Shown here piece by piece: positions 30,863 through 61,737 of a stretch of 64,000 bases of DNA (its first letter is position 1; each line of letters begins with the position of its first letter). Location of the stretch: positions 35,548 to 99,547 of the forward strand of contig JAPDKA010000001.1 in NCBI GenBank assembly GCA_029258825.1, given 5' to 3'. Both the position numbers and the translations under genes were made by a program. Under the pieces are notes generated by a model. That model ran no database searches, had not been told where the DNA came from, and worked only from the letters and a program-made list of their open reading frames with translations. The stretch comes from an archaeon (GTDB lineage Archaea; Nanobdellota; Nanobdellia; Pacearchaeales; JAPDKA01).

Positions 30863-31033
30863 GTTATTATTATAACATTGCTACTTTTAAAATCTAACGA
30901 TTGATAGAATTTAAGTAAACATGTATAAATTATATATCTTTGTTAATTCACAAACCACAAATAAATTTTTGGTTATAAATGAAATTAAAAATAAAATTTT
31001 TTAATAATGAAAAATACAAAAATTTATCAATAA

Positions 31034-35232: not shown

Positions 35233-36225
35233 TTATTTTGTTTTGCTTTTTTGCTTGCAATTTTGTTTATTTACTTGTTTACAATTGCCAATTCTTGTTT
35301 TTATCTTTTTCGTTTTGAATTTTGCTTTTTTATTTTTAAGTTTGTCTATCTCAAGCAGATGCAAAAATAACAACAGTTCATCAAGATTAGCGAGGTTAGC
35401 ATAATCAAGGTTTACGCCAGGACAAGCAAGAGCAACATAAAAATCTAACCCAAAATTGATAAGTTCTGCTTCAGTTATGTTGTCTGCAAGAAAGAAATAA
35501 ACCTTTTTATTTATTCGTTGTAATCGCTGCAATGCTCTTAATACTCTATCAAGTTGCATATTTTGCAGCATGAACTGCCCGGGCTTTACACTTATTATCA
35601 ACCCTATATTTGTGGCATAAACAAACCTAACAAATTTAGCTTTCTTTTGCTTCAACAATTGTTTTGCTATATCATTGTGATGCTGTAAAGTAATCTTGCC
35701 TAATGCTTGTAGTGAGGCTTGTATCGAGTAAACATGAAGCTTAGGCAATGTAAACTGTTTTTGCTTTCTTGCTGTATAATTCAGCAGTGCGTCAACAAAC
35801 ATTTTGATGTGAAATGTGCCAGAACCAACAAATAAAAAAATACAATCGTCAAACCTTAATTTTGATTTTTTTATTGCTGTGTAAATGATATTGAATGATT
35901 GACAACCAAGCACAGTGCCAGCATAAATAGCACTGCAGTGCTGCGCTACAAAGCTATAAACAATTTTGGCTATTGCCTCATCTTGCAATGTTGTAAATAC
36001 AACAATTGTTTTGTTTTTATTTTTTGCATGCTCAACTAGTTCAGCGATTTTTTTATTGTTTTTTAACGCTTTAGAATATTGCTTGCTTGCGGGTTTTACT
36101 GCTTTAACAACAATTACATCAATTTTGTCAAGCTTTTTATGCTGTTTGTTTTGCTCTTTGTGTTTTCTAACAGATTTGGCCATAGGAAAAAAAATCAAAA
36201 TAGATTTAAAAATATCATGGTTCAA
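35233..36225 (-). CDS. dph2: diphthamide synthase Dph2-like (2-(3-amino-3-carboxypropyl)histidine synthase family), N-terminally abbreviated
   Basis: KTIVVFTTLQDEAIAKI, GTVLGCQSFNI, IFLFVGSGTFH, IGLIISVKPGQ and YVALACPGVNLD resemble the domain 2/3 motifs of archaeal Dph2 (GSG-FH, ACP-V-LD), recalled from memory. The first ~70 aa are K-rich low complexity and a domain-1 Cys motif was not found. Confidence 0.5.
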   Translation of the reverse strand: MNHDIFKSILIFFPMAKSVRKHKEQNKQHKKLDKIDVIVVKAVKPASKQYSKALKNNKKIAELVEHAKNKNKTIVVFTTLQDEAIAKIVYSFVAQHCSAIYAGTVLGCQSFNIIYTAIKKSKLRFDDCIFLFVGSGTFHIKMFVDALLNYTARKQKQFTLPKLHVYSIQASLQALGKITLQHHNDIAKQLLKQKKAKFVRFVYATNIGLIISVKPGQFMLQNMQLDRVLRALQRLQRINKKVYFFLADNITEAELINFGLDFYVALACPGVNLDYANLANLDELLLFLHLLEIDKLKNKKAKFKTKKIKTRIGNCKQVNKQNCKQKSKTK

Positions 36226-36370
36226 TAAGAATAGCTCGAAAAATTACATTTTAAAAATCTGTGTATTTGTTACCTTTATTAAATAGTAAATAGAAAAATT
36301 TATAAACGAGTGAGTTTTAGTAAAGTTAAACTAAAGGTGAAATTAGAAAAAGAAGCAACACCAAAGCAGA

Positions 36371-37288
36371 ATGGAACACCAAATCCAAATCATAGGAAAC
36401 AGAAAAGATGGAAGGTTGGATAGTCTAGTTAGGGAAGCATTAGATAGTGGTTTATTTAGAAGAGCATATGAAAGAGTGATGGGGATAAGAACAAAACAAA
36501 AAGCAAGAACAAAGCAAGAATCACAAAATATTGAAAAGAAGTTGATAAGTAGTGTTGATGATTTAAAGGAAATTGAGGGTGTTTGTGAACTTCAACCTGG
36601 AAAGTATAACATATATTTTGAAATTGAGATTCCTGAAGGAAGTAAGCTTATATTGCCGGCTGGTGTTGAGCTTTATTTTGCTGAAAATTGTGGCATAACA
36701 TGTGATGGAGAGCTTGAAGTGAAAGGAAAGAAAGGTTTAGAAGTTATAATTAGTGCTTTAGACAAAGACAAAGGATGGAAGAATATTGTGGTTGGAGAAA
36801 AAGGTAAGGCAAAGTTTAATTATGCTAAGGTTAGTTATGGTAGGGGAAGAAAAGATAAAGATGGTGATGTTAGTGGAGGGGCTGTCTCGGTTTATGGGGA
36901 ATTCTATGCTGATAATTCTGTGTTTGAGGAGAATAGTGCAAAATATGGTGGGGCAATAAGGAATTATAAAGGAAAAGTAGAGATAGGGGAGAATAATGTG
37001 TTTAGAGGGAATAGTGCAGAAAATAATGGTGGGGCAATAAGGAATTATAAAGGAAAAGTAGAGATAGGGGAGAATAATGTGTTTAGAGGGAATAGTGCAG
37101 AAAATAATGGTGGGGCAATAAGGAATTATGAAGGAAAAGTAGAGATAGGGGAGAATAATGTGTTTAGGGAGAATAGTGCAGAAAATGATGGTGGGGCAAT
37201 AAGGAATTATGAAGGTGAACTAAATATAGATAAAAGTAAAAACACATTTATAGGAAATAAACCAGATGATATTTATATTGGAGATTAA
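36371..37288 (+). CDS. repeat protein: conserved N-terminal module + Pmp-like (GGAI / FxxN) beta-helix repeats
   Basis: N-terminal 47 aa MEHQIQIIGNRKDGRLDSLVREALDSGLFRRAYERVMGIR nearly identical to the N-terminus of ORF 43408-44460. C-terminal three 27-aa repeats GGAIRNYKGKVEIGENNVFRGNSAENN carry the GGAI and FxxN motifs of polymorphic-membrane-protein type parallel beta-helices. Confidence 0.6.
   Translation: MEHQIQIIGNRKDGRLDSLVREALDSGLFRRAYERVMGIRTKQKARTKQESQNIEKKLISSVDDLKEIEGVCELQPGKYNIYFEIEIPEGSKLILPAGVELYFAENCGITCDGELEVKGKKGLEVIISALDKDKGWKNIVVGEKGKAKFNYAKVSYGRGRKDKDGDVSGGAVSVYGEFYADNSVFEENSAKYGGAIRNYKGKVEIGENNVFRGNSAENNGGAIRNYKGKVEIGENNVFRGNSAENNGGAIRNYEGKVEIGENNVFRENSAENDGGAIRNYEGELNIDKSKNTFIGNKPDDIYIGD
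36947..37189 (+). repeat. 3 x 81-bp near-identical tandem coding repeats
   Basis: ggtggggcaataaggaattataaaggaaaagtagagataggggagaataatgtgtttagagggaatagtgcagaaaataat repeated three times with 1-3 substitutions. Confidence 0.7.
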
Positions 37289-37358
37289 TTGTTAATACTA
37301 TTAAAACATTGTAGAAAGTCAATATTTCTGTTTTTAACATGTATAAACTATACATGTT

Positions 37359-37397
37359 CTGCAAAATATATGTTGCAGATTATGTATAGAATTACAT
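37359..37397 (+). repeat. ~40-nt intergenic repeat element, copy A, upstream of the MNT-HEPN cassette
   Basis: ctgcaaaatatatgttgcagattatgtatagaattacat; preceded at 37338-37356 by palindrome catgtataaactatacatg; related copies at 38394-38433 and 61698-61737. Confidence 0.4.
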
Positions 37398-37444
37398 TTT
37401 AAAAATGGAAAAATTTATAAACAATTGGAAGGAAATATTTACAT

Positions 37445-37978
37445 ATGGAAAAAAAATTAACCATACTAAAACCATTTTTCGAGAATCCAAATAGGGAATT
37501 TCACATAAGAGAGCTCTCTAGGATGCTCAAAATAAACCATACTACAGTAAGGCAATATCTTAACAAATTCGTGAAAGAAAATTTACTCGAAATGAAGAAG
37601 GAAAGAAAATTTAAATTATTTAAAGCGAAGATTAATAGAAAATTCTTAAACTTAAAATTATTTTATAATTTAGAAAAAATCAGAAAGAGTGGTTTGATAG
37701 AAGATTTAGAAAGAAATTTTGATTTTCCACCAATTGTAATTTTTGGTTCTTATGCTCAAGCTATGGACAACAAAAACAGCGATATTGATATATGTATCAT
37801 TACTAACATTAAGAAAAAATTTAATACAACAAAGTATGAAAAAAAGCTTAATAGAAAATTAAGCTTACATATTTTTTCTGAAAAAGAGTGGGAAAAATTA
37901 AAGGTTACAAATCCAGAATTGGTAAACAGCATTTGTAATGGGATTGTTTTAGCAGGACAGTTAGAAGTAGTAAAATGA
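37445..37978 (+). CDS. wHTH-fused nucleotidyltransferase (MNT)
   Basis: HIRELSRMLKINHTTVRQYLNKFV HTH + IVIFGSYAQAMDNKNSDIDICII GS...DxD motif; paralog of 20223-20789. Confidence 0.65.
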   Translation: MEKKLTILKPFFENPNREFHIRELSRMLKINHTTVRQYLNKFVKENLLEMKKERKFKLFKAKINRKFLNLKLFYNLEKIRKSGLIEDLERNFDFPPIVIFGSYAQAMDNKNSDIDICIITNIKKKFNTTKYEKKLNRKLSLHIFSEKEWEKLKVTNPELVNSICNGIVLAGQLEVVK

Positions 37979-37981
37979 ACT

Positions 37982-38278
37982 TTGAAGAAAGCCTTAAAAA
38001 AGAGTTATGTAAAAAAGGTTAAAAAAGATAAATTTAGAGCAAAAAGCTTGATTAAGTCTGCAGAATTAATTTTAAAGACAATTAAACAAATTCCATTGAA
38101 TAAAACAAGTGCAAATACAATCTTAAGAGAACTTTATGAAGCGCTAAGACAATGCTGCGAAGCTATAGGTTATTTATACAGGTATAAATTTTTATCACAT
38201 GAAGCAATAACTTACTTTATTTCGGATGTTCTTGAAGACAAAAGACTTGCTCTAAAGTTTGATAGATACAGAAAATAA
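37982..38278 (+). CDS. HEPN domain protein
   Basis: 98 aa helical; paralog of 19765-20226; starts 4 nt after the MNT stop. Confidence 0.55.
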   Translation: MKKALKKSYVKKVKKDKFRAKSLIKSAELILKTIKQIPLNKTSANTILRELYEALRQCCEAIGYLYRYKFLSHEAITYFISDVLEDKRLALKFDRYRK

Positions 38279-38393
38279 GAAATTCAATAAATTACTATGG
38301 ACATTTTATAGACATATTAAGTGTTAATCATGCATTAATTGAAATTCCACAGATGATAGAAAAATTAAAGAAATTTATTTCAACATTATAATG

Positions 38394-38433
38394 CTGTAAA
38401 ATATATGTTAGAGATTATGTATAAACTATACAT
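38394..38433 (+). repeat. ~40-nt intergenic repeat element, copy B, downstream of the MNT-HEPN cassette
   Basis: ctgtaaaatatatgttagagattatgtataaactatacat; ends in palindrome atgtataaactatacat (38417-38433); direct orientation relative to copy A. Confidence 0.4.
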
Positions 38434-38490
38434 CTTTATTAAGTTTACAGTACTGCATAACAAGAAAAAGTAAAGTAATGCTGTCGATGT

Positions 38491-38859
38491 TTATTCTATT
38501 TTTTCTACTTTTTCTTTCTTCTCTTCACCTTTGTAAATTTCAGCAAACTCTGGCGTTACTATCACTATACTTTCACCAAACCCTGCTATATCGCCTTCAA
38601 GAGCGTCGCATGTTTTTTTCAATTTGCTTATCGCTCTTTTCAATTCAATAAGATCTCTGTTTTTCAACGGCGAAATGTCAATAATAGCAATAGTGTAACC
38701 TTCACGTAATGCATTCAAGATTTTGTTAACATCCTCAAATTCACGCAACACAAACGGCCTTACCACCACTTTTTGCTTTTTCACCTCTTTTCCTATATCT
38801 ATTTCAATATATTCCGGCTCATCCTGTTGCTTTTTTGCTCTTCGAAATCTGAACACCAT
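38491..38859 (-). CDS. sepF: cell division protein SepF-like (DUF552)
   Basis: VVVRPFVLREFEDVNKILNALREGYTIAIIDISPLKNRDLIELKRAISKLKKTCDALEGDIAGFGESIVIVTP matches the SepF/YlmF core pattern (P..f.da..i.d.l..g..v..nL..l......Ri.DFl.G...AL.G.i....i). Confidence 0.55.
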   Translation of the reverse strand: MVFRFRRAKKQQDEPEYIEIDIGKEVKKQKVVVRPFVLREFEDVNKILNALREGYTIAIIDISPLKNRDLIELKRAISKLKKTCDALEGDIAGFGESIVIVTPEFAEIYKGEEKKEKVEKIE

Positions 38860-38953
38860 TTTAAAATTTATTGTGTTGGCATTTATAAATATTTTGTTTG
38901 ATTAAGCTTGGTTATTATTGTTTTTCCCAGGTTATTTTTAAATGTTTCTATAC

Positions 38954-39280
38954 CTATTTTGCTTTTTTCAATATTTCCTCTCTAAGCTTTAATGCCTTTT
39001 CTTTTAACACTTCTTCTTGCTTTTCTATGCTTTTAATCCTTAACTCAAGTAACTCGTGTTTTTCCTTCAGCTCTTTCTCAAGTTGTTCTTTGTTTGCTTT
39101 GACCATTACACTACCTACAACCTTAAACACATCGCCTTGTTTACTTTTCTTTACTTCCTCAAGAGCATCAAGCGTTTCCTTAATCTCAAGCTGAAATAAT
39201 TGTTTTTGTACAGCAAGCTGCTGAAGATTATGCTCGATAAGTTGCAATTCTTCAAGTTTTTTTTGTTGTTGCGCATCCAT
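38954..39280 (-). CDS. pfdB: prefoldin beta subunit
   Basis: 108 aa two-helix coiled coil flanking a beta-hairpin (DVFKVVGSVMVKANKE); conserved archaeal neighbourhood with rpoP and rpl37ae. Confidence 0.65.
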   Translation of the reverse strand: MDAQQQKKLEELQLIEHNLQQLAVQKQLFQLEIKETLDALEEVKKSKQGDVFKVVGSVMVKANKEQLEKELKEKHELLELRIKSIEKQEEVLKEKALKLREEILKKAK

Positions 39281-39281
39281 A

Positions 39282-39419
39282 TTAGTCTGTTTTTACACGT
39301 TTAATTCTTGTTCTTGGTTTATAAAAGATACGTGAACCGCAGTGTGGACAAACAAAACGCTTTTCCAAGTTTTTGTGTGAAATCTGCTTACCGCAAACAT
39401 AACATTTGTATATTGCCAT
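39282..39419 (-). CDS. rpoP: DNA-directed RNA polymerase subunit P (Rpo12/RpoP)
   Basis: Hand translation MAIYKCYVCGKQISHKNLEKRFVCPHCGSRIFYKPRTRIKRVKTD (45 aa): CxxC...CxxC zinc ribbon typical of RpoP. Absent from the ORF track (<60 aa). Sits between rpl37ae and pfdB as in many archaea. Confidence 0.75.
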   Translation of the reverse strand: MAIYKCYVCGKQISHKNLEKRFVCPHCGSRIFYKPRTRIKRVKTD

Positions 39420-39464
39420 TTTGTTTTTTGATTATTTTGTTTTATTTTTTATATTAATGTCTTT

Positions 39465-39686
39465 CTAATCTCTTTTCACAAAATATGCACCGCCTGTAAA
39501 TTTTTTGTCACAACTTTTACAATAAAATATGCCGCTTGCAAGTCTCTTAACAGAAAACTTCTTGCAATATGGGCATTGTTGTTTTGCTCTCTGCTTTCGT
39601 TCTATTGCTGCAACTTTGTGTCGTATTCTAGCACCATAATTAGCACGAAACCTTCCAGCACTCGCAACCTTTTTTGTTCTTGCCAT
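39465..39686 (-). CDS. rpl37ae: ribosomal protein L37ae (eL43)
   Basis: MARTKKVASAGRFRANYGARIRHKV...CPYCKK...CKSCDKKFTGGAY: conserved N-terminus and C4 zinc ribbon of eL43. Confidence 0.8.
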   Translation of the reverse strand: MARTKKVASAGRFRANYGARIRHKVAAIERKQRAKQQCPYCKKFSVKRLASGIFYCKSCDKKFTGGAYFVKRD

Positions 39687-39737
39687 TTTAACGCAAGCTT
39701 TGCGGCATTTAAAAAAGTTTTGTTAAACAAAATAAAG

Positions 39738-39812
39738 TGGGGCTGCCCGGATTCGAACCGGGGTCTCGAGCTCCCAAGGCTCGGATGCTAGACCAGGCTA
39801 CACCACAGCCCC
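39738..39812 (-). tRNA. tRNA-Pro (anticodon UGG)
   Basis: Reverse complement GGGGCUGUGGUGUAGCCUGGUCUAGCAUCCGAGCCUUGGGAGCUCGAGACCCCGGUUCGAAUCCGGGCAGCCCCA; anticodon loop CUUGGGA. Confidence 0.85.
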
Positions 39813-39895
39813 TCATAACCTTAGCTGATAAAATAAATATGTTTTAAAAGTTTTTTGAAAAATGTTCTCTCTAAGACCAACCGAAGGATTTATAA

Positions 39896-41854
39896 ATGAG
39901 TTTTATTTGTTACTATATGATGGTAAAAATGATAAATCAGATTAAAAACAAAGCAGAAAAAGAAAAAAGAGAAGCAAAATTTGAAGGTAGCATCAGTATA
40001 GAAGAAAAAGAAGTAATTATAGATCCTTTAACTAGACTGCCTCAAAAAAATTCTTTTGCCGGTGTAATTGATCCAAAAACTAAGCAAATCAACATCCAAT
40101 ATAAAAAAGAGTATGCTGAAAAGAAACCAGAAAAAACAGAGAAGGTTGTTATAGATATCGAAAGACACGAAATTAACCATATAGGGGATGTAAGAACAAA
40201 AAAAGGATGTCCTGGAACTTTGGAAAAGCACCTTGAAATTTATGAAGCAGTGGCTGAAGTTTTAAAACCTATGGGATATAACCAATTCGATGTTCAATAT
40301 GTGGTTAATGCATTCGAAGATTTCATTGATAATATTAACCTCTCAAACAAATTTGATATAGAGGGATTAATAAGATTCTATGAAGATGTTGGAGAGAACT
40401 GTGAAAGTTTAGTAGAAAAATTTGAGAAGATGTTTAATGTCAAAGTAAAAGCAAAAAGAAAACCAAAATATACTCCATTCTATGAAGCATTTGTTAAGCT
40501 TCAAGCATTGTTCTGGAATCATCCGGAAAAAAGAATTCTTAACAAATACTACACACATAAGCCAGAAATAAAAGAGACTCTTGAAAATTTTCTTGAAAGG
40601 AGTGGTTTAAGAAATTTTAAAAGGAAAATTCATATTGGACGTAAGGTAATAGAAACAAATGAAAAAGATAGAGAAGCTATGCTTAATTATTTAAACGATG
40701 AAGAAAGATGGCCTAAGTTAGCTAAAATTTTTGCAGAAGAATTCAGTAAGTTAATACAGCCAGGTTATGCCTTGCCCATTCCTGGTTTGGGTGGTGCTGG
40801 AACAAGAGGAAGAGAAAACGAAGTTGAAGTAAGAATTAAAGTAAAGAAGAAAAAAAGTGGTGATGAAGATGAAGAAGAAAGTGAGGAAGAAGGAATTGAC
40901 TGGGACAATTTTGAAGAAGGCAACTACTTTGATAGAGAGATGAAGGATCCAGAAAAAAGAAAAGAGCAAGCTTGGAAAGATTTTAACAAAGGTAAAGGTC
41001 GACCAGACTGGCTCAATTATTATGAGGCTTTAGATGCAGTTTATGAAAGACTTGCAAGAAGGCTTAATATTAAAGCAGAGGTTTTTACAAGAACAACAAA
41101 GATGCCTCTTGCTTGGTATGGAAAACGCGACTTTGATCCTGAAAGAGACAAACCAAAGCATTTAACTTTTGGTTTTAATGAGAAAGGTAATGTTGTACGA
41201 AAAAAGAAAAGATGGCACTATGACATGAACCTTGAATACAGAGTTGCTGAAAAAGGTTTTCCGGAAGTTAGGTTTGTTATGGTTGATACCTCTAGTAGTA
41301 TGAAAAAAGACCCAGAAGGTGGAAATAACGTAGGAGACACAAGCTACATTCCTTGGGGAACAAACAGTAAGTATCACTATGCATTACTTGCATGGTATGG
41401 TTTTCTTGAGTATCTAAGGCAAAATCACTTGCTTAAGAAAACAACAATAAGCCTAGCGAATTTCTCTGATGTTACTGTCTTAGCTAAAGGCCTAGAACAA
41501 GCAAAAAAACTTGCTTTAAAACCACAATTTGGAAGCACATATGTAGATCTTGATAAAGTAAAAGAAATTTTAAGCGGGCACGGAAATCTAATATTCACAA
41601 TTTCAGATGGAGAAATATTTAACTGGGAGGACATCAAAGACGAGTTCATCAAGAATGCAAAGAATAATTACTATTTCCATATCCAAATAGGTTCTTCTAA
41701 TGAAGTAACGAATGATTTGGAAGCAGAAGGAATTCCTGTTTACTATGTTAAAGGCGAACTTGATTTGTGGCAGAAAGTAATAGAGATTACTGATAATCTT
41801 TATAGAAAAAAATCTAAAGGAAAACTTTCACTTGCGAAATATTATAAAAAATAG
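39896..41854 (+). CDS. HExxH-motif N-terminal domain + C-terminal von Willebrand factor A (MIDAS) domain protein
   Basis: IERHEINHIGD (HExxH) at ~residue 90; acidic linker DEDEEESEEEG; C-terminal VRFVMVDTSSSMKKD (MIDAS DxSxS), TISLANFSD (Thr) and LIFTISDGE (Asp); 652 aa; directly upstream of the MoxR ATPase. Confidence 0.55.
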   Translation: MSFICYYMMVKMINQIKNKAEKEKREAKFEGSISIEEKEVIIDPLTRLPQKNSFAGVIDPKTKQINIQYKKEYAEKKPEKTEKVVIDIERHEINHIGDVRTKKGCPGTLEKHLEIYEAVAEVLKPMGYNQFDVQYVVNAFEDFIDNINLSNKFDIEGLIRFYEDVGENCESLVEKFEKMFNVKVKAKRKPKYTPFYEAFVKLQALFWNHPEKRILNKYYTHKPEIKETLENFLERSGLRNFKRKIHIGRKVIETNEKDREAMLNYLNDEERWPKLAKIFAEEFSKLIQPGYALPIPGLGGAGTRGRENEVEVRIKVKKKKSGDEDEEESEEEGIDWDNFEEGNYFDREMKDPEKRKEQAWKDFNKGKGRPDWLNYYEALDAVYERLARRLNIKAEVFTRTTKMPLAWYGKRDFDPERDKPKHLTFGFNEKGNVVRKKKRWHYDMNLEYRVAEKGFPEVRFVMVDTSSSMKKDPEGGNNVGDTSYIPWGTNSKYHYALLAWYGFLEYLRQNHLLKKTTISLANFSDVTVLAKGLEQAKKLALKPQFGSTYVDLDKVKEILSGHGNLIFTISDGEIFNWEDIKDEFIKNAKNNYYFHIQIGSSNEVTNDLEAEGIPVYYVKGELDLWQKVIEITDNLYRKKSKGKLSLAKYYKK

Positions 41855-43396: not shown

Positions 43397-43407
43397 ACAA
43401 AGCTAAA

Positions 43408-44460
43408 ATGGAAAACAAAATTTTGATTATAGGAAACAGAAAAGGTGGAAGGTTGGAGGGTTTAGTTAGGGAAGCATTAGATAGTGGTTTATTTAGAAGA
43501 GTATATGAAAAGGTGATGGGGATAAGGAGAGAGAAGAAACGGGAAGAAATAAAAAGCAAGCCAATTTCAAAATTAGAATCTGGACTGTATATTGGTGGAG
43601 ATTTTACTAAAGTTGGTCGTTTGAAATTGGATGATAGAGGTATTGTAAAGTATGAGAATGGTAGAATAGAGAAGGTTGTGGATGGGTTTGATTGGATTGA
43701 GCATTTCATTGAGAAGGATGGTGTGTTGTATATTGGTGGAGGTTTCACTAAGGTTGGTGGTTTGAAATTGAATGATAGAGGTATTGTAAAGTATGAGAAT
43801 GGTAGAATAGAGAAGGTTGTGGATGGGTTTAATGGTCGGATTAAGCATTTCATTGAGAAAGATGGTGTGTTGTATATAGGTGGAGGTTTTACTAAGGTTG
43901 ATGGTTTGAAATTGGATGGTTGTGGTATTGTAAAGTATGAGAATGGTAGAATAGAGAAGGTTGTGGATGGGTTTAATGATCGGATTATGCATTTCATTGA
44001 GAAAGATGGTGTGTTGTATATTGGTGGAGGTTTCACTAAGGTTGGTGGTTTGAAATTGGATGGTTGTGGTATTGTAAAGTATGAGAATGGTAGAATAGAG
44101 AAGGTTGTGGATGGGTTTAATGATTGGATTATGCATTTCATTGAGAAGGATGGTGTGTTGTATATAGGTGGAGGTTTTACTAAGGTTGATGGTTTGAAAT
44201 TGGATGGCAGAGGTATTGTAAAGTATGAGAATGGTAGAATAGAGAGGGTTGTGGATGGGTTTGATGATCGGATTAAGCATTTCATTGAGAAGGATGGTGT
44301 GTTGTATATTGGTGGAGGTTTTACTAAGGTTGATGGTTTGAAATTGGATGGCAGAGGTATTGTAAAGTATGAGAATGGTAGAATAGAGAGGGTTGTGGAT
44401 GGGTTTGATGATTGGATTAGGCATTTCATGGAAATTAAAAATAAAACAAAATTAGAATGA
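43408..44460 (+). CDS. repeat protein: conserved N-terminal module + six 47-aa Kelch-like (beta-propeller blade) repeats
   Basis: N-terminus MENKILIIGNRKGGRLEGLVREALDSGLFRRVYEKVMGIR shared with ORF 36371-37288. Six repeats LYIGGGFTKVxGLKLDxxGIVKYENGRIEKVVDGFxxxIxHFIEKDGV with a GG doublet and conserved Y/W/G spacing reminiscent of Kelch blades. Confidence 0.6.
   Translation: MENKILIIGNRKGGRLEGLVREALDSGLFRRVYEKVMGIRREKKREEIKSKPISKLESGLYIGGDFTKVGRLKLDDRGIVKYENGRIEKVVDGFDWIEHFIEKDGVLYIGGGFTKVGGLKLNDRGIVKYENGRIEKVVDGFNGRIKHFIEKDGVLYIGGGFTKVDGLKLDGCGIVKYENGRIEKVVDGFNDRIMHFIEKDGVLYIGGGFTKVGGLKLDGCGIVKYENGRIEKVVDGFNDWIMHFIEKDGVLYIGGGFTKVDGLKLDGRGIVKYENGRIERVVDGFDDRIKHFIEKDGVLYIGGGFTKVDGLKLDGRGIVKYENGRIERVVDGFDDWIRHFMEIKNKTKLE
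43585..44430 (+). repeat. 6 x 141-bp near-identical tandem repeats (coding)
   Basis: Period-141 repetition seen directly, e.g. ttgtatattggtggaggtttcactaaggttggtggtttgaaattg...gagaatggtagaatagagaaggttgtggatgggttt recurring at 43729, 43870, 44011, 44152 and 44293 with few substitutions; this also generates long spurious ORFs on the minus strand. Confidence 0.8.
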
Positions 44461-44502
44461 AACACTAAATTTAAATCATAGGAAAAAACAGATTTTCTCC
44501 TT

Positions 44503-45126
44503 TTATTTCTTCTCCTCGTTACCTTCTTCCTTCTTTTCCTCGGCTGGCTTTTCAGCTGGCTTCACTTTTTTCTCGAGTTGTGCTTTGATTGTTTCTAGTT
44601 CTCGTTTTAGTTTAGCTTGCTTTTCTGGGCTAACTGTTAGCATTTCTTGTTCAGCTTTTGCTATAAGATCGTCATATTTACCTTCTTCAACCTCTTTAAT
44701 AACTTCCCTAGGATCTTTACTTTCGACTAATACACCCATACTAACACAACTACCAAGCACTGTTTTAAGAGCATTCTTCAAACTTAATGTCGGCAATGCT
44801 TCAAGCTTTGACTTAGCTATGTTTATTGCCTGTTCTATAGCAAGATTACCGACCTTAATTACATGCGGTTGTGATGATGCAGTCTCTATGCTGAGTTCCT
44901 TCTTAATTAATTCAGTCGCAGGCGGTGTTAAAACTTTAACATTAAAGTCTTTAGTTTTCGTATCTATGTCAAGCACAACAGGAACACGCATACCTTTAAA
45001 CTGTTGAGTAGCTTTGTTAACTTCACTAATTACCTTACCTAAATTAATACCTAAAGGCCCAAGCTTTTGGCTGATGTCTGGGCCTGGCTTCATGTTGCCG
45101 CCTTCAACAAGTATCTTGATTTCCAT
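44503..45126 (-). CDS. rpl11: ribosomal protein L11 (uL11) with K/E-rich C-terminal extension
   Basis: From internal Met: MEIKILVEGGNMKPGPDISQKLGPLGINLGKV...VLTPPATELIKK...GSCVSMGV matches uL11. The track ORF (to 45297) has a 57-aa non-conserved N-terminal over-extension. ~70-aa K/E-rich tail. Confidence 0.8.
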   Translation of the reverse strand: MEIKILVEGGNMKPGPDISQKLGPLGINLGKVISEVNKATQQFKGMRVPVVLDIDTKTKDFNVKVLTPPATELIKKELSIETASSQPHVIKVGNLAIEQAINIAKSKLEALPTLSLKNALKTVLGSCVSMGVLVESKDPREVIKEVEEGKYDDLIAKAEQEMLTVSPEKQAKLKRELETIKAQLEKKVKPAEKPAEEKKEEGNEEKK

Positions 45127-50157: not shown

Positions 50158-50937
50158 ATGAAGGCTATATGGAAAGGTAGTATTGCATTTGGTCTTGTCA
50201 ACATTCCTGTAAAGTTGTATGCAGCAGTACAACCAAAACAGATAAGCTTCAAGTTGTTATGTGGCAAATGTCATACACCATTAAAGTATAAACGTTATTG
50301 TCCTAAATGCAAACGGGAAGTTGTATGGCAAGATGTTGTTAAAGGCATCAAAATAGGTAATAAATACATAGTATTAAGTAAAGAACAACTAAAAAAGTTA
50401 AGGCCGGAACAACTAAACGTGATAGAAATAGTCGGGTTCATCAAACCTGAAACTGTAGACAAGATTTACTTTCATAATAACTATTATATTGCACCAGACA
50501 CCAAATCAGCAAAAGCATACTTTTTACTGCAAGAGGTGTTAAGAACAACTGCAACTGCTGCAGTCGCGAGACTTGTGTTGCATGAAAAAGAATACACAGC
50601 ATTAATTACAGCATATAAACAAGGGTTGCTTTTAACGACACTCTATTATGATTATGAAGTGCGCGACATTAATGCAATTACAGAGATTGCTGAAGCTAAA
50701 AAAAAGACAAAAATAACAAAACAAGAGTTGCAGCTCGCGTTAATGCTTGTCGAAAAGTTAAGCAAAAAACAACTTAAGTTGGAGCAATTCAAAGATAGTT
50801 TTGTTGAAAAACTCAAGGCTATGCTTGCAGGCAAAATAGAAAAGCCTGCTCAGCCTCAACCAGAAAAACTAATTGAAGCTTTACAGCTAAGCATAAAACA
50901 AAGCGTCAAGCAAAGAAAAAGAAAAAAGGAAGTTTAA
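50158..50937 (+). CDS. ku: Ku protein (bacterial-type NHEJ end-binding)
   Basis: MKAIWKGSIAFGLVNIPVKLYAA N-terminus diagnostic of prokaryotic Ku; LKYKRYCPKCKREV zinc-ribbon-like insert as in mycobacterial Ku. Confidence 0.8.
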   Translation: MKAIWKGSIAFGLVNIPVKLYAAVQPKQISFKLLCGKCHTPLKYKRYCPKCKREVVWQDVVKGIKIGNKYIVLSKEQLKKLRPEQLNVIEIVGFIKPETVDKIYFHNNYYIAPDTKSAKAYFLLQEVLRTTATAAVARLVLHEKEYTALITAYKQGLLLTTLYYDYEVRDINAITEIAEAKKKTKITKQELQLALMLVEKLSKKQLKLEQFKDSFVEKLKAMLAGKIEKPAQPQPEKLIEALQLSIKQSVKQRKRKKEV

Positions 50938-51008
50938 GAAGAATTTAATTTTTGGAACTAATTAATTAACAAAAAATTTATAAATATTTAGAAATCATTA
51001 ATACATTA

Positions 51009-51347
51009 ATGGAAGAACTTAAACAAATGGCAGAAGAATTTCTCGAAGCAGGTAAAGATAACTTAACTAAAAAAAGGTTTAATGCGGCAATATCAGATTT
51101 TTTCAAAGCTATTGCCATCTATTGTGATTATCTAATGTACTTAGAAGCAAGAATAATTCCAAAAAACCACACAGAAAGGTTTGCCTTACTCAAAAAGTAT
51201 TTTCCTGCTATATACGTTAAAGTCTCTTCTCTGTTTTCTCTGTATACAAAATCATACAATATGAAAGTGAATGAAAAAGATGTAAAAATAGTAAAGGATT
51301 ATGCTTATGAGATCAAAAAATTTATTGAAAATAAAGAAACTATTTAG
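51009..51347 (+). CDS. HEPN domain protein
   Basis: 112 aa all-helical; FFKAIAIYCDYLMYLEARIIPKNHTERF typical of HEPN of HEPN/MNT pairs; overlaps the downstream MNT gene. Confidence 0.5.
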   Translation: MEELKQMAEEFLEAGKDNLTKKRFNAAISDFFKAIAIYCDYLMYLEARIIPKNHTERFALLKKYFPAIYVKVSSLFSLYTKSYNMKVNEKDVKIVKDYAYEIKKFIENKETI

Positions 51348-51834
51348 AGATATATTGGAAGATAAAAACATAATAGACATAATTGTATTCGGTTCAGCTG
51401 TAAAAGGAAAAGCATTACCACAGGATATAGACATCGCTTTGATATATAAAAATAAAATAAATAAAAATAAGATTCCTAGAGAAAAAAACCTGCATATTAG
51501 TTTTATCTCAGTTGAAGAATTCTTTCGAGGATTACCATTAACAAATATCTTATTACGAGAGGGTATAAGTTTAAAGTATAAAAAACCTCTTGCAGAAATT
51601 TTTAGATTTAAGAATATGGTATTATTTGCTTATTCTCTTGAGGGATTAAGAAGTAGTAAAAAAGTAAAGATCGTAAATTGGTTGAAAAATAAAAAAACTG
51701 GAATAACTAAATATGGTGGAGTATGGGTTAGAAGAAGTGTATTTTTTGTGCCTTGCGTGTATGAAAAAATTTTTGCAGATTTTTTTATAAAAAACAAAGT
51801 AAAATTTAAAAAATGGTATTCTTTAATACATTAA
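51301..51834 (+). CDS. nucleotidyltransferase (MNT)
   Basis: IIDIIVFGSAVKGKALPQDIDIALIY GS...DxD motif. Confidence 0.6.
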   Translation: MLMRSKNLLKIKKLFRDILEDKNIIDIIVFGSAVKGKALPQDIDIALIYKNKINKNKIPREKNLHISFISVEEFFRGLPLTNILLREGISLKYKKPLAEIFRFKNMVLFAYSLEGLRSSKKVKIVNWLKNKKTGITKYGGVWVRRSVFFVPCVYEKIFADFFIKNKVKFKKWYSLIH

Positions 51835-51849
51835 TAAAAAATTGAAAAA

Positions 51850-52089
51850 ATGAAAAGAAAGGATAATATATTAATAATTTCCAAAATTAGACAGTTAATG
51901 AAAAAAAAGAAGATAAAAGCAAGTAACAAAGTTATTTCACAATTAGATAAATTCGTTAGAGATGTAGTAAACTACATATTAGATATCGCCAAGTATGAAA
52001 CATTAACTGCAGGAAAAAAAATCGTTAGTGTTACAGAATTAAAAAATGCTATACAAAAACTAAAAGAAGAAAAATCTTTAGAAATTTGA
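51850..52089 (+). CDS. hypothetical small protein
   Basis: 79 aa, K-rich helical; sits between the MNT and ligase genes; 4-bp overlap with ligase start. Confidence 0.3.
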   Translation: MKRKDNILIISKIRQLMKKKKIKASNKVISQLDKFVRDVVNYILDIAKYETLTAGKKIVSVTELKNAIQKLKEEKSLEI

Positions 52090-53108
52090 TAGAAATGAAA
52101 ACTTATGAAAAATGTTTTATGCTTGCTTTTCCAACAGATAGAACAATACTAAAGAGTTCTCAGTATATTTTTGAACCAAAATTGGACGGAACACGCGTGC
52201 ATATAATTAAAAAAGGTAAAAGTGTAAAACTAATTAACAGACGTGGTAAAGATATAAGCTACAGATATCCTGAATTGCAGCATGTATGGAAAAACATTAA
52301 AGCAAAAACTGCAATTCTTGATGCTGAACTTGTTGTATTAAATCAGCAGCAAAAACCTGACTTTAACTTATTGCAACAGAGGGAACAGCAAGATAAAAAA
52401 ATAAACATAGCTTTATTAGCGAAACAAATTCCTGCAGTGTTGTTTGTTTTTGACGTACTAATGCTGAATGATAAAATTACAGCAAGCAAGACATTGCTGG
52501 AACGAAAAAGTATACTTGATAGTGTGATTAAGCAAGACAAAAACATTGTTGTATGTCCTTATACATTCGACGGAATTAAACTTTGGAAGGCTGTAAAAAA
52601 ATTGAAGTTAGAAGGAGTAATGGCAAAACGCATTGATAGTGTTTATGAGTGCTGCAGAAGCAAATCATGGCTAAAGATAAAAAACATAAAAACAATCGAT
52701 GCTATCGTAATCGGTTATACAATTAAACAAAGACAAAATGCAAGCAAATCAAAACGTTGCATTAGTGCATTATTGCTAGCGCTATATGAAAAACCGAAAA
52801 CAAAAAAGCAAGAAAAAATAAAGCAACGAAAACTTGTTTATATAGGCAGGGTAGGAACAGGTTTCAGTGCAGAACAACTTGAGACAATTAAAGCTATACT
52901 TGATAAACATAAATCTAAACAAATGCCAGCATTGAAAAATAAACAAATGTTAAACAAAATAAAAAGCAATACAGTAATTGTATGGTTAAAGCCGGAAGTA
53001 ATTGCAGAGATCAAATATCTTGAATTTACAAAACAAAAAGAACTAAGAGCAAGTAGTTTTGTTAGACTCAGATTTGATAAACCACCAGAAGAATGTGTTA
53101 TGGAATAA
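52086..53108 (+). CDS. ligD: ATP-dependent DNA ligase (LigD ligase-domain-like)
   Basis: Motif I FEPKLDGTR (KxDG adenylation lysine), motif IV EGVMAK, OB-fold C-terminus; 340 aa minimal ligase, same strand as ku. Confidence 0.75.
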   Translation: MIEMKTYEKCFMLAFPTDRTILKSSQYIFEPKLDGTRVHIIKKGKSVKLINRRGKDISYRYPELQHVWKNIKAKTAILDAELVVLNQQQKPDFNLLQQREQQDKKINIALLAKQIPAVLFVFDVLMLNDKITASKTLLERKSILDSVIKQDKNIVVCPYTFDGIKLWKAVKKLKLEGVMAKRIDSVYECCRSKSWLKIKNIKTIDAIVIGYTIKQRQNASKSKRCISALLLALYEKPKTKKQEKIKQRKLVYIGRVGTGFSAEQLETIKAILDKHKSKQMPALKNKQMLNKIKSNTVIVWLKPEVIAEIKYLEFTKQKELRASSFVRLRFDKPPEECVME

Positions 53109-60047: not shown

Positions 60048-61016
60048 TTATTGGTTTTCATTGCTTTTGCTCAAATACTTGAAAGCAGAATATGCCGCAA
60101 TAGCCCCGTCTGCACATGCTGTTATGATCTGCCTCAAAACAGTGTTTGTGCAGTCTCCAGCAGCGAAAATGCCATTGACATTAGTGCGTTTTTCTTTATC
60201 AACAATAATAAAACCATGCTCGTCTGTATTAACACCAAGTTGTTTAGCCAAGGCTGTGTTGGGAATTTCACCAATTTCTATAAAACAGCCATCCACATTA
60301 AGTTTACTCACAACAGCTTTTGATTTGTCAAAAGCGTCTAGCAGTATTGCTTTAAGCGTATCATCGCCAATAAATTTTACCGGAATAGCATTAAAGATCA
60401 CTTCCACATTCTGCTTTGCTTTTAGCTTTTGTATTAATGCATGTTGAGCTTTAAGCTTATTTCGCCTATAAACAACATAAACCTTTTTTGCTATCTCGCT
60501 TAGCAGCAAAGCAGCAAGCACTGCTGAATCACCACCGCCAATCACAGCAACAGTTTTACCAGAAAAAAAAGCTGCATCACATGTATAGCAGTAACTTACG
60601 CCCTTACCAATAAACTTATCTTCCCCTTCTATGTTTAACTTTTTCTTTTCTGTACCTAAAGCAAGTATTAATGCTCTAGCAATTATTGTCTCACCTGAAT
60701 CGAGCACAATTTCAAACTGTTCTGTTTCTGTCAAAAGTTTTCTTGCCTGCACAACTGTTGCATGTTTAATGTTTACACCAAGTTTTGTTGCGTGTTGCAT
60801 AAATTTCTGCATAAGTTCTGCTCCACTAATAGCTTTAAATCCTGGATAGTTTTCAATTTCATGTGCATGCATTGCTAGACCTCCAGGCTGATTACCCACA
60901 ACAACCACGTTGAGGCCATAACGCACTGCATAGATGCCTGCTGTAATGCCTGCAGGCCCAGCACCAATCACAGCAAGATCAACTTCCATTTTGTTACGCA
61001 TTTTTATTTGCATCAA
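60048..61016 (-). CDS. trxB: thioredoxin reductase (NADPH, low-Mr TrxB type)
   Basis: FAD motif VDLAVIGAGPAGITAGIYA, redox-active CYTC, NADPH motif VAVIGGGDSAV, C-terminal FAAGDCTN. Likely true start at MEVDLAVIG (~60992), giving a 3-bp overlap with the trxA stop. Confidence 0.8.
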   Translation of the reverse strand: MMQIKMRNKMEVDLAVIGAGPAGITAGIYAVRYGLNVVVVGNQPGGLAMHAHEIENYPGFKAISGAELMQKFMQHATKLGVNIKHATVVQARKLLTETEQFEIVLDSGETIIARALILALGTEKKKLNIEGEDKFIGKGVSYCYTCDAAFFSGKTVAVIGGGDSAVLAALLLSEIAKKVYVVYRRNKLKAQHALIQKLKAKQNVEVIFNAIPVKFIGDDTLKAILLDAFDKSKAVVSKLNVDGCFIEIGEIPNTALAKQLGVNTDEHGFIIVDKEKRTNVNGIFAAGDCTNTVLRQIITACADGAIAAYSAFKYLSKSNENQ

Positions 61017-61323
61017 TCAACCGCTGCAATCTCGCTTTCAACATTTCCTTTGGCATAGACCCAACAATCCTGTCAACAAGGTTGCCATTAACAAACACAA
61101 GTAAAGTAGGAATTGACATAATGCCATATTTCATTGCTAGCTCTCTTGCATTGTCAACATTCACCTTAGCAAAACTTATGCTTGGCATTTCTGCAGCAAG
61201 TTGCTCAATTATTGGTGCTAACATCATGCATGGACCACACCATACTGCATAAAAATCTACAACAACAATTTTATTTTGCTTTACGAATTCATCAAAATTT
61301 TCTCTGTTAAGTTCAACAACCAT
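60994..61323 (-). CDS. trxA: thioredoxin
   Basis: VVDFYAVWCGPCMMLAP: WCGPC active site; 109 aa. Confidence 0.8.
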   Translation of the reverse strand: MVVELNRENFDEFVKQNKIVVVDFYAVWCGPCMMLAPIIEQLAAEMPSISFAKVNVDNARELAMKYGIMSIPTLLVFVNGNLVDRIVGSMPKEMLKARLQRLIDANKNA

Positions 61324-61324
61324 T

Positions 61325-61609
61325 TTACAACAATTTGCGTAGTTTTAGTTTAGTTTTTAAGCAAAAACTTATGCCTGCTCGAGTAAGTTTGTAAGCATAT
61401 ACTTTGCGCCCATCTTTGTAGCGTTTTATTAGCTTTCTTTCAAGATAACCTTGCTTAAGCATTTTTTTAAGCAAAGGATAGATTTGCGCTGAACCCACTT
61501 TACAATTTAATTTTGCATTAACAATTTTAATTATATCATAACCTGTGTACCATTTCGAAGGTTTAAAAGCACATAAAACACACAATTCAACTATTGTTTT
61601 TATTTTCAT
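61325..61609 (-). CDS. PadR-like winged-helix transcriptional regulator
   Basis: 94 aa; YTGYDIIKIVNAK...SAQIYPLLKKMLKQGYLERK...YAYKLT fits the PadR wHTH pattern; promoter region carries two ATGTATAAtTTATACAT palindromes. Confidence 0.5.
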   Translation of the reverse strand: MKIKTIVELCVLCAFKPSKWYTGYDIIKIVNAKLNCKVGSAQIYPLLKKMLKQGYLERKLIKRYKDGRKVYAYKLTRAGISFCLKTKLKLRKLL

Positions 61610-61697
61610 TTTTCACTCGTTTTTGTTATTTTTTCATTTAATATTTTGTTTTTAAGATCAAAGCATTTATAAACATTATGTATAATTTATACATAAT

Positions 61698-61737
61698 CTG
61701 TAATATATATTTTGCAAAAGATGTATAATTTATACAT
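61698..61737 (+). repeat. ~40-nt intergenic repeat element, copy C, upstream of the PadR-like gene
   Basis: ctgtaatatatattttgcaaaagatgtataatttatacat; a second palindrome atgtataatttatacat lies at 61678-61694. Confidence 0.4.

Follow-up and report, generated by a model that had tools for sequence, protein, structure and literature searches.

A two-gene wHTH-MNT cassette bracketed by direct copies of a predicted PadR-type operator module in an archaeal genome

The cassette and the repeated module

The window, by which we mean the whole 64-kb stretch of archaeal DNA analysed here, carries on its forward strand a two-gene cassette that lies between direct copies of a short repeated element. The first gene (37445–37978) is intact and encodes a wHTH-MNT protein of 177 aa, with an N-terminal winged helix and a nucleotidyltransferase domain of the Pol-beta type. 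This protein matched the Pfam families PF18765 (33.1 bits) and PF01909 (31.9 bits), both over cut-off, and HTH_5 weakly, and its residues 5–165 matched the PADLOC model PDC-M05A (E = 9.7e-19). The NCBIfam equivalog for MntA scored 29 bits against a cut-off of 60. At least 511 homologues with 60–73% identity were found.

The second, partner gene (37975–38391, forward strand) forms a two-gene operon with the first, the stop and start codons overlapping as ATGA. It is intact in approximately 75 of 80 related loci but disrupted in the window, where frameshifts of +1 near 38002 and of −1 in the A-run at 38272–38275 mean that intact homologues (135–137 aa) align to frame 1, then frame 2, then frame 1 again, up to a restored stop codon at 38389–38391. 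The frameshifted sequence is identical in two other assemblies. An intact homologue of the partner matched PDC-M05B over residues 10–127 (E = 2.1e-5), hence the cassette type has adjacent genes that match M05A and M05B, as in PDC-M05, a PADLOC candidate defence system of a nucleotidyltransferase and a HEPN protein which is enriched in archaea (PMC12988326). The partner had been called HEPN in an earlier note on this DNA. Intact homologues gave no Pfam HEPN match and no PDB match by single sequence (phmmer) or by profile, and an hhalign comparison of the partner with the other HEPN protein of the window found no match (probability 0.1%). The invariant motif of the partner, RYRK(I/L)RNGINYYG, is not a clear Rx4-6H. 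The pair thus resembles HepT/MntA (HEPN-MNT, type VII) and PDC-M05 in its overlapping operon, its Pol-beta/MNT nucleotidyltransferase and its PDC-M05A/B matches, whereas it differs from HepT/MntA in the winged helix fused to the MNT domain and in a partner that gave no Pfam HEPN match and is here frameshifted twice. The second HEPN-MNT pair of the window (51009–51834) has neither the repeated element nor a flanking duplication.

The cassette is preceded by its own promoter block, AATGGAAAAATTTATAAACAATTGGAAGGAAATATTTACAT (37404–37444), with a BRE-like GGAAA, a TATA box TTTATAAA at 37414–37421 and a dyad, TGGAA-N8-TT(C/A)CA, at the start codon; the generic promoter of this lineage is GGAAA-N-ATTTATAAAC. 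The wHTH-MNT mRNA is probably leaderless, and the dyad is a probable operator for the wHTH-MNT protein itself. The palindrome of the neighbouring repeats was considered for this role and rejected, as 80 homologous cassettes lack it and conserve the dyad TGGAA-N8-TTCCA at the start site instead.

Three copies of a repeat of about 40 nt had been noted in the window, and these are real and far above chance: AAAATATATNTTNNAGATTATGTATA, comprising spacer and palindrome start, has exactly three matches (37363 and 38398 on the forward strand, 61688 on the reverse) where none is expected, and the quoted sequences are present at their coordinates. The repeat is however part of a larger module of about 60 nt, in which a 26-nt spacer with the dyad CTGCAA-N8-TTGCAG separates two copies of one 17-bp palindrome, ATGTATA-N3-TATACAT (ATGT-N9-ACAT by its half-sites), spaced 43 bp apart. 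Complete modules lie at 37339–37397 and 61678–61737, and 38394–38433 is a partial copy without the first palindrome; two perfect palindromes, at 37339–37355 and 61678–61694, had been overlooked. Module A, upstream of the cassette, consists of a palindrome ATGTATAAACTATACAT (37339–37355), the dyad spacer CTGCAAAATATATGTTGCAG (37359–37378) and a second palindrome ATGTATAGAATTACAT (37382–37397), which is degenerate, an N8 version with one base missing and one arm mutated. Copy B (38394–38438, forward strand) starts 3 nt past the stop codon of the partner gene and joins a decayed spacer, CTGTAAAATATATGTTAGAG, to an intact palindrome ATGTATAAACTATACAT (38417–38433), followed by a TATA-like TTTATTAA at 38435–38442. 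Module C (61678–61737) lies upstream of the PadR-like gene as had been described, but aligns better on the reverse strand (58 nt at 86% identity to copy A and 39 nt at 90% to copy B) than in the orientation first given (only ~78%), and so points at that gene. Its spacer is flanked by two palindromes of the form ATGTATAA(A/T)TTATACAT, distal at 61721–61737 and proximal at 61678–61694.

The palindromes at 38417–38433 and 37339–37355 agree letter for letter, as do the two palindromes of module C. Copies A and B share 84% identity, and each is 86–90% identical to module C. With up to one mismatch, ATGTATANNNTATACAT has five sites in 64 kb (0.02 expected), and ATGT-N9-ACAT occurs at 37339, 38417, 61678 and 61721, with the N8 form at 37382. 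With so few sites, the element does not behave like a promoter sequence in general use; such a sequence would precede many unrelated genes, and in the 64 kb the element is found at three loci only. A lone palindrome with one mismatch, ATGTATAAATTATATAT (30921–30937, strand unassigned), lies upstream of tRNA-Met; it could be one more operator or have arisen by chance. A scan of genome contigs with the bare 15-base palindrome listed random, mostly bacterial matches. Among the matches listed, a Woesearchaeota MAG (L067) has one palindrome, which precedes a small AbrB-like gene and is uninformative here.

The module at the padR-thioredoxin operon

Module C precedes a reverse-strand operon (60048–61609) that encodes a PadR-like regulator (61609–61325), thioredoxin (61323–60994) and thioredoxin reductase (61016–60048), with Pfam matches to PF03551 (PadR), PF00085 and PF07992. 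The regulator is a short, single-domain, PadR-s2-like protein of 94 aa with a CxxC motif at residues 10–13. It passed the PF03551 threshold (34.3 bits, cut-off 27) and matched NCBIfam PadR models only under their cut-offs. A TATA box TTTATAAA (61666–61673) follows the proximal palindrome after 4 nt and the padR ATG after 64 nt, hence the palindromes sit in the promoter of the regulator’s own operon, the location typical of autoregulation. The order padR, thioredoxin, thioredoxin reductase is the same at the loci L003, L004 and L125. L125, the only relative found in the search for PadR homologues (88% identical), keeps the arms ATGTATA/TATACAT and the TATA box and has a changed 3-nt centre, a pattern expected of protein binding; this footprint comes from one relative, whose contig begins inside the module and covers its proximal half only.

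PadR operators have been described as inverted repeats of ATGT and ACAT half-sites, with 8–10 nt between them (PMC3506622, PMC5050560). The palindromes of the window fit this consensus, derived from bacterial rather than archaeal operators, with N9, or N8 in the degenerate copy. A shared operator was one reading already proposed for the repeats and it is supported by the fit to the consensus, the position in the padR promoter and the conservation in the relative. From the sequence we infer both that the PadR-like regulator encoded at 61609–61325 has the 17-bp palindrome as its operator and in which direction it regulates. Two such operators, set 43 bp or about four helical turns apart upstream of the TATA box, would therefore lie on the same face of the helix. 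PadR dimers bound there would cover the position of the BRE and control access of TFB and TBP, and padR could thereby be autoregulated, possibly in a thiol-responsive manner through the CxxC motif.

The arrangement shares with operators of the PadR/LmrR type the ATGT/ACAT half-sites, the spacer of 9 (8 in the degenerate copy), the location in the promoter of the regulator’s own operon, and a short, single-domain, PadR-s2-like regulator over the Pfam PadR threshold. It differs in its archaeal host, in a BRE/TATA promoter instead of −35/−10 boxes, in the two identical sites 43 bp apart around a conserved dyad spacer, in arms extended to 7 nt (ATGTATA) and in its cargo, the thioredoxin system, binding being predicted. 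Twin predicted ATGT-N9-ACAT operators at the BRE/TATA of an operon with a CxxC regulator make padR-trx-trxR a candidate archaeal PadR regulon and a testable model of thiol-based control of the thioredoxin system.

Cassette boundaries and flanking duplications in related loci

Across 80 loci that hold a homologous cassette, the DNA is conserved from 41 nt upstream of the wHTH-MNT start codon up to the stop codon of the partner gene. The left edge is sharp, with information content rising from ≤0.3 to 1.3–2.0 bits at −41/−40 (71 distinct loci). The conserved unit, about 985 bp including its 41-nt promoter, holds the two genes only; no transposase or integrase was found in it and no integrase in the flanks inspected. 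Terminal inverted repeats were likewise absent when left ends were compared with reverse-complemented right ends in 62 loci (median score 15 vs 14 for shuffled sequence). The genomic contexts of the 80 loci all differ, and in none is the cassette adjoined by SepF, Pfd, RpoP, L37ae or PMP. The module was found at none of the 80, and the closest homologue of the cassette (73% identical) has neither module nor duplication. We therefore rejected the module as a component of the cassette, since conservation in related loci stops at the cassette edges and the module is absent there. In relatives with a SepF 72–79% identical to that of the window, sepF and dph2 are adjacent, separated by 190–210 nt with no cassette and no palindrome; these are the nearest SepF relatives, and the empty site proposed earlier for comparison is thus seen at approximately genus or family level, not at strain level.

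At the window cassette, local alignment of the two flanks gave a score of 51 (84% identity over 45 columns; control maximum 36). The left copy (37359–37401, forward strand) ends 2 nt before the conserved left edge and the right copy comprises 38394–38438, so that the duplication abuts both edges of the cassette. Using a score cut-off of 30, the 99th percentile of 600 mismatched flank pairs, we detected flanking direct repeats in 18 of 60 testable loci, representing the window and 15 other distinct loci, whereas of 814 mock segments taken from these contigs only 1.2% exceeded it. One more locus (L163) was found by BLAST, giving 16 other distinct loci with bracketing duplications. The repeats are 23–99 nt long without a fixed length, 78–100% identical, and unrelated between loci, with cross-locus matches only among duplicate contigs. 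They often copy the 5′ or 3′ end of an adjacent gene. The downstream copy begins 0–3 nt past the stop codon in 11 loci and the upstream copy ends 0–23 nt before the left edge in most, or up to ~50 nt before it in two (L127 and L202), with short non-homologous filler at many junctions. Approximately 30% of cassette loci carry a duplication and ~70% do not. The window follows this family pattern exactly, its upstream copy running from −44 to −1 and its downstream copy beginning 3 nt after the stop codon. A literature search found no report of flanking duplications around HEPN-MNT cassettes.

The repeats around the cassette had also been read as the footprint of a mobile unit, and the likeness of the A/B pair to the duplications around 16 other members of the family argues for this. 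Those 16 loci are bracketed by their own local sequence and not by this element.

Origin of the bracketing repeats

The operator and mobile-footprint readings are best combined. The joint explanation we favour, with a probability of roughly 0.65, is a pair of PadR-type operators together with insertion of the cassette and duplication of its target. Under this explanation the PMP-repeat gene and sepF once had a second PadR-type module between them, and the mobile two-gene cassette (41-nt promoter, wHTH-MNT and PDC-M05B/HEPN-like partner) entered just downstream of it. The insertion would have duplicated a target of ~45 bp, consisting of the spacer, the second palindrome and TTTA, leaving one copy at each end of the cassette. 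The copies would later have diverged to 84% identity, the left losing its palindrome and the right its spacer dyad, and the partner (toxin) gene would have gained its two frameshifts after insertion. The identity of the palindromes at 38417 and 37339, as in the module C pair, fits a single module split by duplication. Since A resembles B no more than either resembles module C, the duplication would be either old or constrained. The repeats are best read as target DNA duplicated at insertion, rather than as sequence carried by the cassette or as a recombination site. Before insertion the module would have been a promoter-like element aimed at the 3′ end of sepF, with no obvious purpose.

That likeness to module C, together with the perfect palindrome at 38417 followed by the TATA-like TTTATTAA and the position of module A only 17 nt upstream of the cassette TATA box, could also be explained if A and B were two independently placed PadR-type operator modules, functional at the cassette edges without any duplication, which might act through looping or roadblocking, for instance, to control the cassette or to promote antisense transcription into sepF. 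We consider this unlikely, as copy B lacks the first palindrome and has a decayed spacer dyad, the second palindrome of copy A is decayed too, and the 16 other loci are bracketed by unrelated local sequences that are not palindromic, some of them pieces of adjacent coding regions; the bracketing therefore belongs to cassette insertion and not to the PadR operator. The same variety among loci weighs against repeats of the att or attC type, between which a circular cassette with one copy would have integrated by site-specific or homologous (Campbell-type) recombination. Direct repeats around an inserted unit are the expected product of a Campbell-type event, the module is imperfectly palindromic like an attC site, and at one related locus (L211) the cassette sits in a head-to-tail array of toxin-antitoxin cassettes. 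However, the flanking repeats differ wholly between loci and are mostly non-palindromic, the module is missing from the 80 other loci and from the closest homologue, there is no integrase in or beside the cassette, and homologous recombination could only reuse existing sites, not make new ones, which leaves this route very improbable.

Long hairpins are predicted for the complete modules (z = −5.5 for A; −3.3 and −4.5 for C), module A lies where REP elements typically do, between convergent genes, homology between modules reaches past the palindromes over 58 nt, and the L125 contig breaks within the module. These features would suit a small extragenic palindrome, mobile or repeated and of the REP or MITE kind, that acts as a DNA or RNA hairpin and is dispersed in the genome, with the cassette merely lying between two copies. 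Yet copy B does not fold (z = +0.5), and within a module both palindromes carry the same 3-nt centre in direct orientation (AAC/AAC, ATT/ATT) and not its complement, hence the hairpin is not the conserved feature. Only two complete copies and one partial copy occur in 64 kb, the spacer-plus-palindrome pattern had no match in JGI metagenome contigs or IMG/VR, and the arms fit the PadR consensus, with one copy exactly at the padR TATA box, so that we regard such an element as quite improbable. To a small RNA encoded by the repeat, the third reading of the earlier note, we give almost no credence: only the hairpin potential of full modules speaks for it, whereas the element had no Rfam match at E up to 1 (36200–39900; only a tRNA rose above threshold in the Rfam searching), copy B shows no significant fold, the element lacks a framing promoter or terminator that would make it a transcription unit, and the arms are kept while the centre is free, as expected of a protein-binding site. 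A scan for bacterial promoters and terminators, uninformative for an archaeon, gave one terminator-like match, made up of the spacer dyad and the AT-rich tract behind it.

Returning to insertion with target duplication, our best guess at its enzymology, held with low confidence, is that a linear fragment was captured at staggered breaks, followed by fill-in and ligation; the organism encodes Ku and an ATP-dependent ligase. On a wider scale, and with the odds somewhat against it, the wHTH-MNT/PDC-M05-like pair of Woese-/Pacearchaeota-type (DPANN) archaea might be a transposase-less mobile unit of ~1 kb, using an undescribed insertion route that duplicates 23–99 bp, often with a few nucleotides of filler. 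Possible routes would be Ku/ligase-mediated capture at staggered breaks or an enzyme acting in trans. Target duplication, a hallmark of transposons and insertion sequences, is present here, while a transposase or integrase and terminal inverted repeats are not. Insertion sequences of the IS1634/IS1549 type produce target duplications of 8–514 bp that are very variable and have no mechanistic model (PMC2266710). The cassette shares their long, variable duplications and differs in having no transposase gene, no terminal inverted repeats and filler at many junctions. Integron cassettes and Campbell-type integration (attL/attR) also place a small gene cassette, promoter-carrying or promoterless, between direct repeats, and toxin-antitoxin cargo is common to both. 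Here, in contrast, the repeats are locus-specific target sequence with no conserved attC/att core, integrase is lacking, and the cassettes are scattered among housekeeping genes. The mechanism of insertion appears to be undescribed.

Toxin-antitoxin and defence gene pairs are routinely called mobile. To our knowledge, the insertion step of free-standing chromosomal toxin-antitoxin pairs is essentially undocumented, and we know of few recognisable mobile-element enzymes in DPANN-type archaea. One conserved cassette family, with sharp ends, placed at dozens of unrelated sites among housekeeping genes and flanked in ~30% of loci by long, variable duplications of local sequence, offers a signature that can be mined and tested, and which points to a non-canonical insertion process in these archaea. 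If correct, this would be a new way for defence and toxin-antitoxin genes to spread in very small archaeal genomes with their neighbours left intact, and the cassette of the window would have hijacked a promoter of the PadR/thioredoxin type, possibly a redox-responsive one.

The repeat module and its predicted operators

A sequence check recovered, at the positions given, all three sequences quoted in the earlier note, which had described two direct copies of a ~40-nt element bracketing a wHTH-MNT cassette and a third copy at 61698, and the repeat observation is both confirmed and extended here. The window contains exactly three occurrences of the 26-nt pattern common to all copies, AAAATATATNTTNNAGATTATGTATA, against none expected, and the palindrome ATGTATANNNTATACAT occurs five times with up to one mismatch against 0.02 expected; the repeat copies are far from chance. 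Two more perfect palindromes, absent from the earlier description, were found at 37339-37355 and 61678-61694. The full unit is a module of ~60 nt, in which a 17-bp palindrome is followed by a 26-nt spacer and the same palindrome again, the pair lying 43 bp apart centre to centre. Modules A (37339-37397) and C (61678-61737) are complete and copy B (38394-38433) consists of the spacer and second palindrome only. Both palindromes of a module are identical (ATGTATAAACTATACAT at 37339 and 38417, ATGTATAATTTATACAT at 61678 and 61721), and the 3-nt palindrome centre is not the same from module to module. Module C aligned with A over 58 nt at 86% identity and with B over 39 nt at 90%, the minus strand giving the better alignment. 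It can be aligned in both orientations because the module is nearly symmetric, with the minus-strand orientation pointing to a PadR-like gene. The spacer also carries its own dyad, CTGCAA-N8-TTGCAG (37359-37378, also 61698-61717).

Operators of the PadR family are ATGT/ACAT inverted repeats spaced 8-10 nt apart in both PadR subfamilies (PMC3506622, PMC5050560), and the window palindromes match them in half-sites and spacing (ATGT-N9-ACAT, with N8 in a degenerate copy). Downstream of module C lie genes for the PadR-like regulator, thioredoxin and thioredoxin reductase, in that order, and the proximal palindrome ends 4 nt ahead of a TTTATAAA box, the TATA consensus of the lineage. The protein database held only one relative of the PadR-like protein (88% identity), whose contig starts inside the module and reads tatatgttgcagatt-ATGTATACACTATACAT-aatgTTTATAAAtg, then padR and trx. 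This relative retains the 7-nt arms and TATA box with a changed centre, and arms kept around a variable centre are what one would expect where a dimeric regulator binds. In all likelihood the palindromes serve the adjacent PadR-like regulator as operators, its binding being predicted, and they are placed where they would occlude the BRE/TATA region. As such they would represent another ordinary example of an operator of known kind.

The regulator is the first gene of the operon (60048-61609, minus strand) with thioredoxin and thioredoxin reductase. Its residues 10-13 form a CxxC motif (ELCVLCAF), retained in the 88%-identical relative, and it may control the Trx system as a thiol switch. An isolated palindrome, ATGTATAAATTATATAT (30921-30937), with one mismatch to the predicted operator, was also detected 59 nt upstream of tRNA-Met (30862-30787, minus strand).

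The cassette and its boundaries

Around A and B the gene order is a PMP-repeat gene (plus strand), wHTH-MNT (37445-37978), its partner gene and a convergent sepF (minus strand). The window has a GC content of 32% and belongs to a DPANN-type archaeon, as homologues of its proteins carry Pace-, Woese- or Nanoarchaeota labels, and the cassette stretch is identical in two other assemblies of the same genome. The wHTH-MNT family is large and very conserved, with 511 matches, nearly all of 176-177 aa and 60-73% identity. Both cassette proteins are hits to PADLOC's candidate defence system PDC-M05, a nucleotidyltransferase and HEPN protein pair enriched in archaea (PMC12988326), and the partner is presumably the toxin; sequence searches with the partner gave no confirmation of the HEPN membership. 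For comparison, 80 cassette loci were fetched from metagenomes, where a frameshift-repaired version of the window's own partner gene, used as query, aligned without a change of frame over residues 1-134 in ~75 of 80. Relative to intact homologues the window gene runs through frames 1, then 2, then 1, indicating a +1 frameshift near 38002 and a -1 frameshift in the A-run at 38272-38275, and here it is a pseudogene.

With loci aligned on the start codon, information content rises from ≤0.3 bits to 1.3-2.0 bits at -41/-40 and returns to ≤0.4 bits directly after the partner stop codon. The 41 nt upstream of the start codon form a promoter block, AATGGAAAgATTTATAAACAagTGGAAATATATATTTCCAaATG, whose DNA sequence is conserved in every locus. 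It includes a BRE-like GGAAA, TTTATAAA at -31 to -24, the position of which implies a leaderless mRNA, and a dyad TGGAA-N8-TTCCA across the start site that is probably wHTH-MNT's own operator. This dyad and that of the module spacer share a 5+8+5 architecture with different arms. The lineage promoter consensus is apparently (A/G)GAAA-N-ATTTATAAAC, seen at the cassette (37403-37422), the PMP gene (36288-36307) and a VapB gene of another genome (locus L211, 590-615). The same L211 contig carries HicA-type, PIN/VapC-type and wHTH-MNT cassettes head to tail in one orientation (118-2220), a small toxin-antitoxin array.

No conservation was found upstream of -41 across the loci, and the ATGTATA palindrome was absent from 80 of 80 loci and from the closest homologue (73% identity), hence the module lies outside the cassette and is not the operator of wHTH-MNT; both possibilities were rejected. 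Cassette contexts were many and differing, and in none of the 80 loci (0/80) were the window's neighbouring genes next to the cassette.

Flanking duplications across cassette loci

The 300 nt left of the conserved left edge were aligned against the 300 nt right of the stop codon, giving a score above 30 in 18 of 60 testable loci. After merging duplicate contigs (L167/L172 and L186/L189) and discarding the artefact L179, these represent 15 distinct loci besides the window, with L163, found by BLAST, bringing the others to 16. Among 600 mismatched flank pairs the 99th percentile was 30 and the maximum 36, and 1.2% of 814 same-length mock segments in the same contigs scored above 30. The repeats span 23-99 nt with 78-100% identity. 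The downstream copy begins 0-3 nt past the stop codon in 11 loci, and in most loci 0-23 nt separate the end of the upstream copy from the left edge (up to ~50 nt in L127 and L202), frequently with short non-homologous filler in between. Several repeats copy part of an adjacent gene which itself remains intact, either the first 24-31 nt of the neighbouring gene (L156, L203) or the final codons of a convergently oriented gene (L192, L126, L138). Flanking duplication is a property of the cassette family, and the window follows this pattern, as its left copy (37359-37401) stops 2 nt short of the conserved left edge, its right copy (38394-38438) starts 3 nt past the stop codon, and the two show 84% identity over 45 columns (score 51). 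Approximately 70% of cassette loci have no duplication and may be older insertions or vertically inherited at conserved sites; one upstream context is common to a clade that includes L145, L166, L169 and L194. The right junction also appears unstable, with the related genomes of L166/L176 and L179/L180 sharing downstream context but differing by 40-59 nt inserted or deleted directly after the partner stop.

These data bear on several other readings of the repeats. A purely regulatory design would have operator copies bracket the cassette in the window, however, it does not explain bracketing elsewhere, where the flanking sequences are unrelated. Because each locus has repeats of its own, recombination sites of the att/attC type are excluded; in an all-against-all BLAST, upstream-to-downstream matches across loci occurred only between duplicate contigs. 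A REP/MITE-like hairpin element is weakened as the palindrome centres are direct copies rather than complementary, copy B has no fold, and only three copies occur in 64 kb. The small repeated RNA proposed in the earlier note found no support, whereas its shared-operator and mobile-cassette proposals are both right, each for a different layer of one locus: the palindromes fit the PadR consensus, and the window matches the family-wide duplications.

The cassette possesses no terminal inverted repeats and no transposase or integrase. What was unexpected, and potentially important, is the family-wide occurrence of long, variable target duplications around such a transposase-free unit. In the literature searched, duplications of this kind were not described for HEPN-MNT or PDC-M05 cassettes. 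IS1634 and IS1549 also generate long target duplications of variable length (8-514 bp), for which a mechanistic model is lacking (PMC2266710), but these elements encode a transposase. In variable duplication length and filler, the cassette loci resemble end-joining capture at staggered breaks, which we propose as a hypothesis for cassette insertion; the window encodes Ku and an ATP-dependent ligase.

A proposed history of the window locus

In relatives with SepF at 72-79% identity, L37ae, prefoldin, SepF and Dph2 genes are contiguous, and the SepF-Dph2 gap of 190-210 nt holds no PMP gene, cassette or ATGT-N8/9-ACAT site. By comparison with these genomes, 36226-38490 of the window is therefore inserted DNA, and the PMP gene, absent from the same gap, also appears to be an insertion. 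In the simplest history, another PadR-type module, with a pair of identical palindromes followed by a TATA-like box, TTTATTAA (38435-38442), would have lain downstream of the PMP gene. The cassette would then have inserted at this module, duplicating the spacer, second palindrome and TTTA, after which the left duplicate would have lost a palindrome and the right duplicate its spacer dyad, followed by decay of the partner gene. The similarity of A to B is no greater than that of either to C, hence sequence alone cannot prove the former identity of A and B. In this history the pre-insertion module would have faced the 3' end of sepF; it may have served as an antisense promoter or been a duplicate without function.

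Ku (PF02735, E 1.7e-44) and the ATP-dependent DNA ligase lie within 50158-53108 (plus strand), hence this small archaeal genome has NHEJ genes. Between them are a 79-aa histone-fold-like ORF and a second, unrelated HEPN-MNT pair (51009-51834), the latter without flanking duplication. The PMP-repeat (Chlam_PMP) gene (36371-37288) contains 81-nt tandem repeats, and a paralogue (43407-44564), 85% identical at its 5' end, contains repeats of 144 nt.
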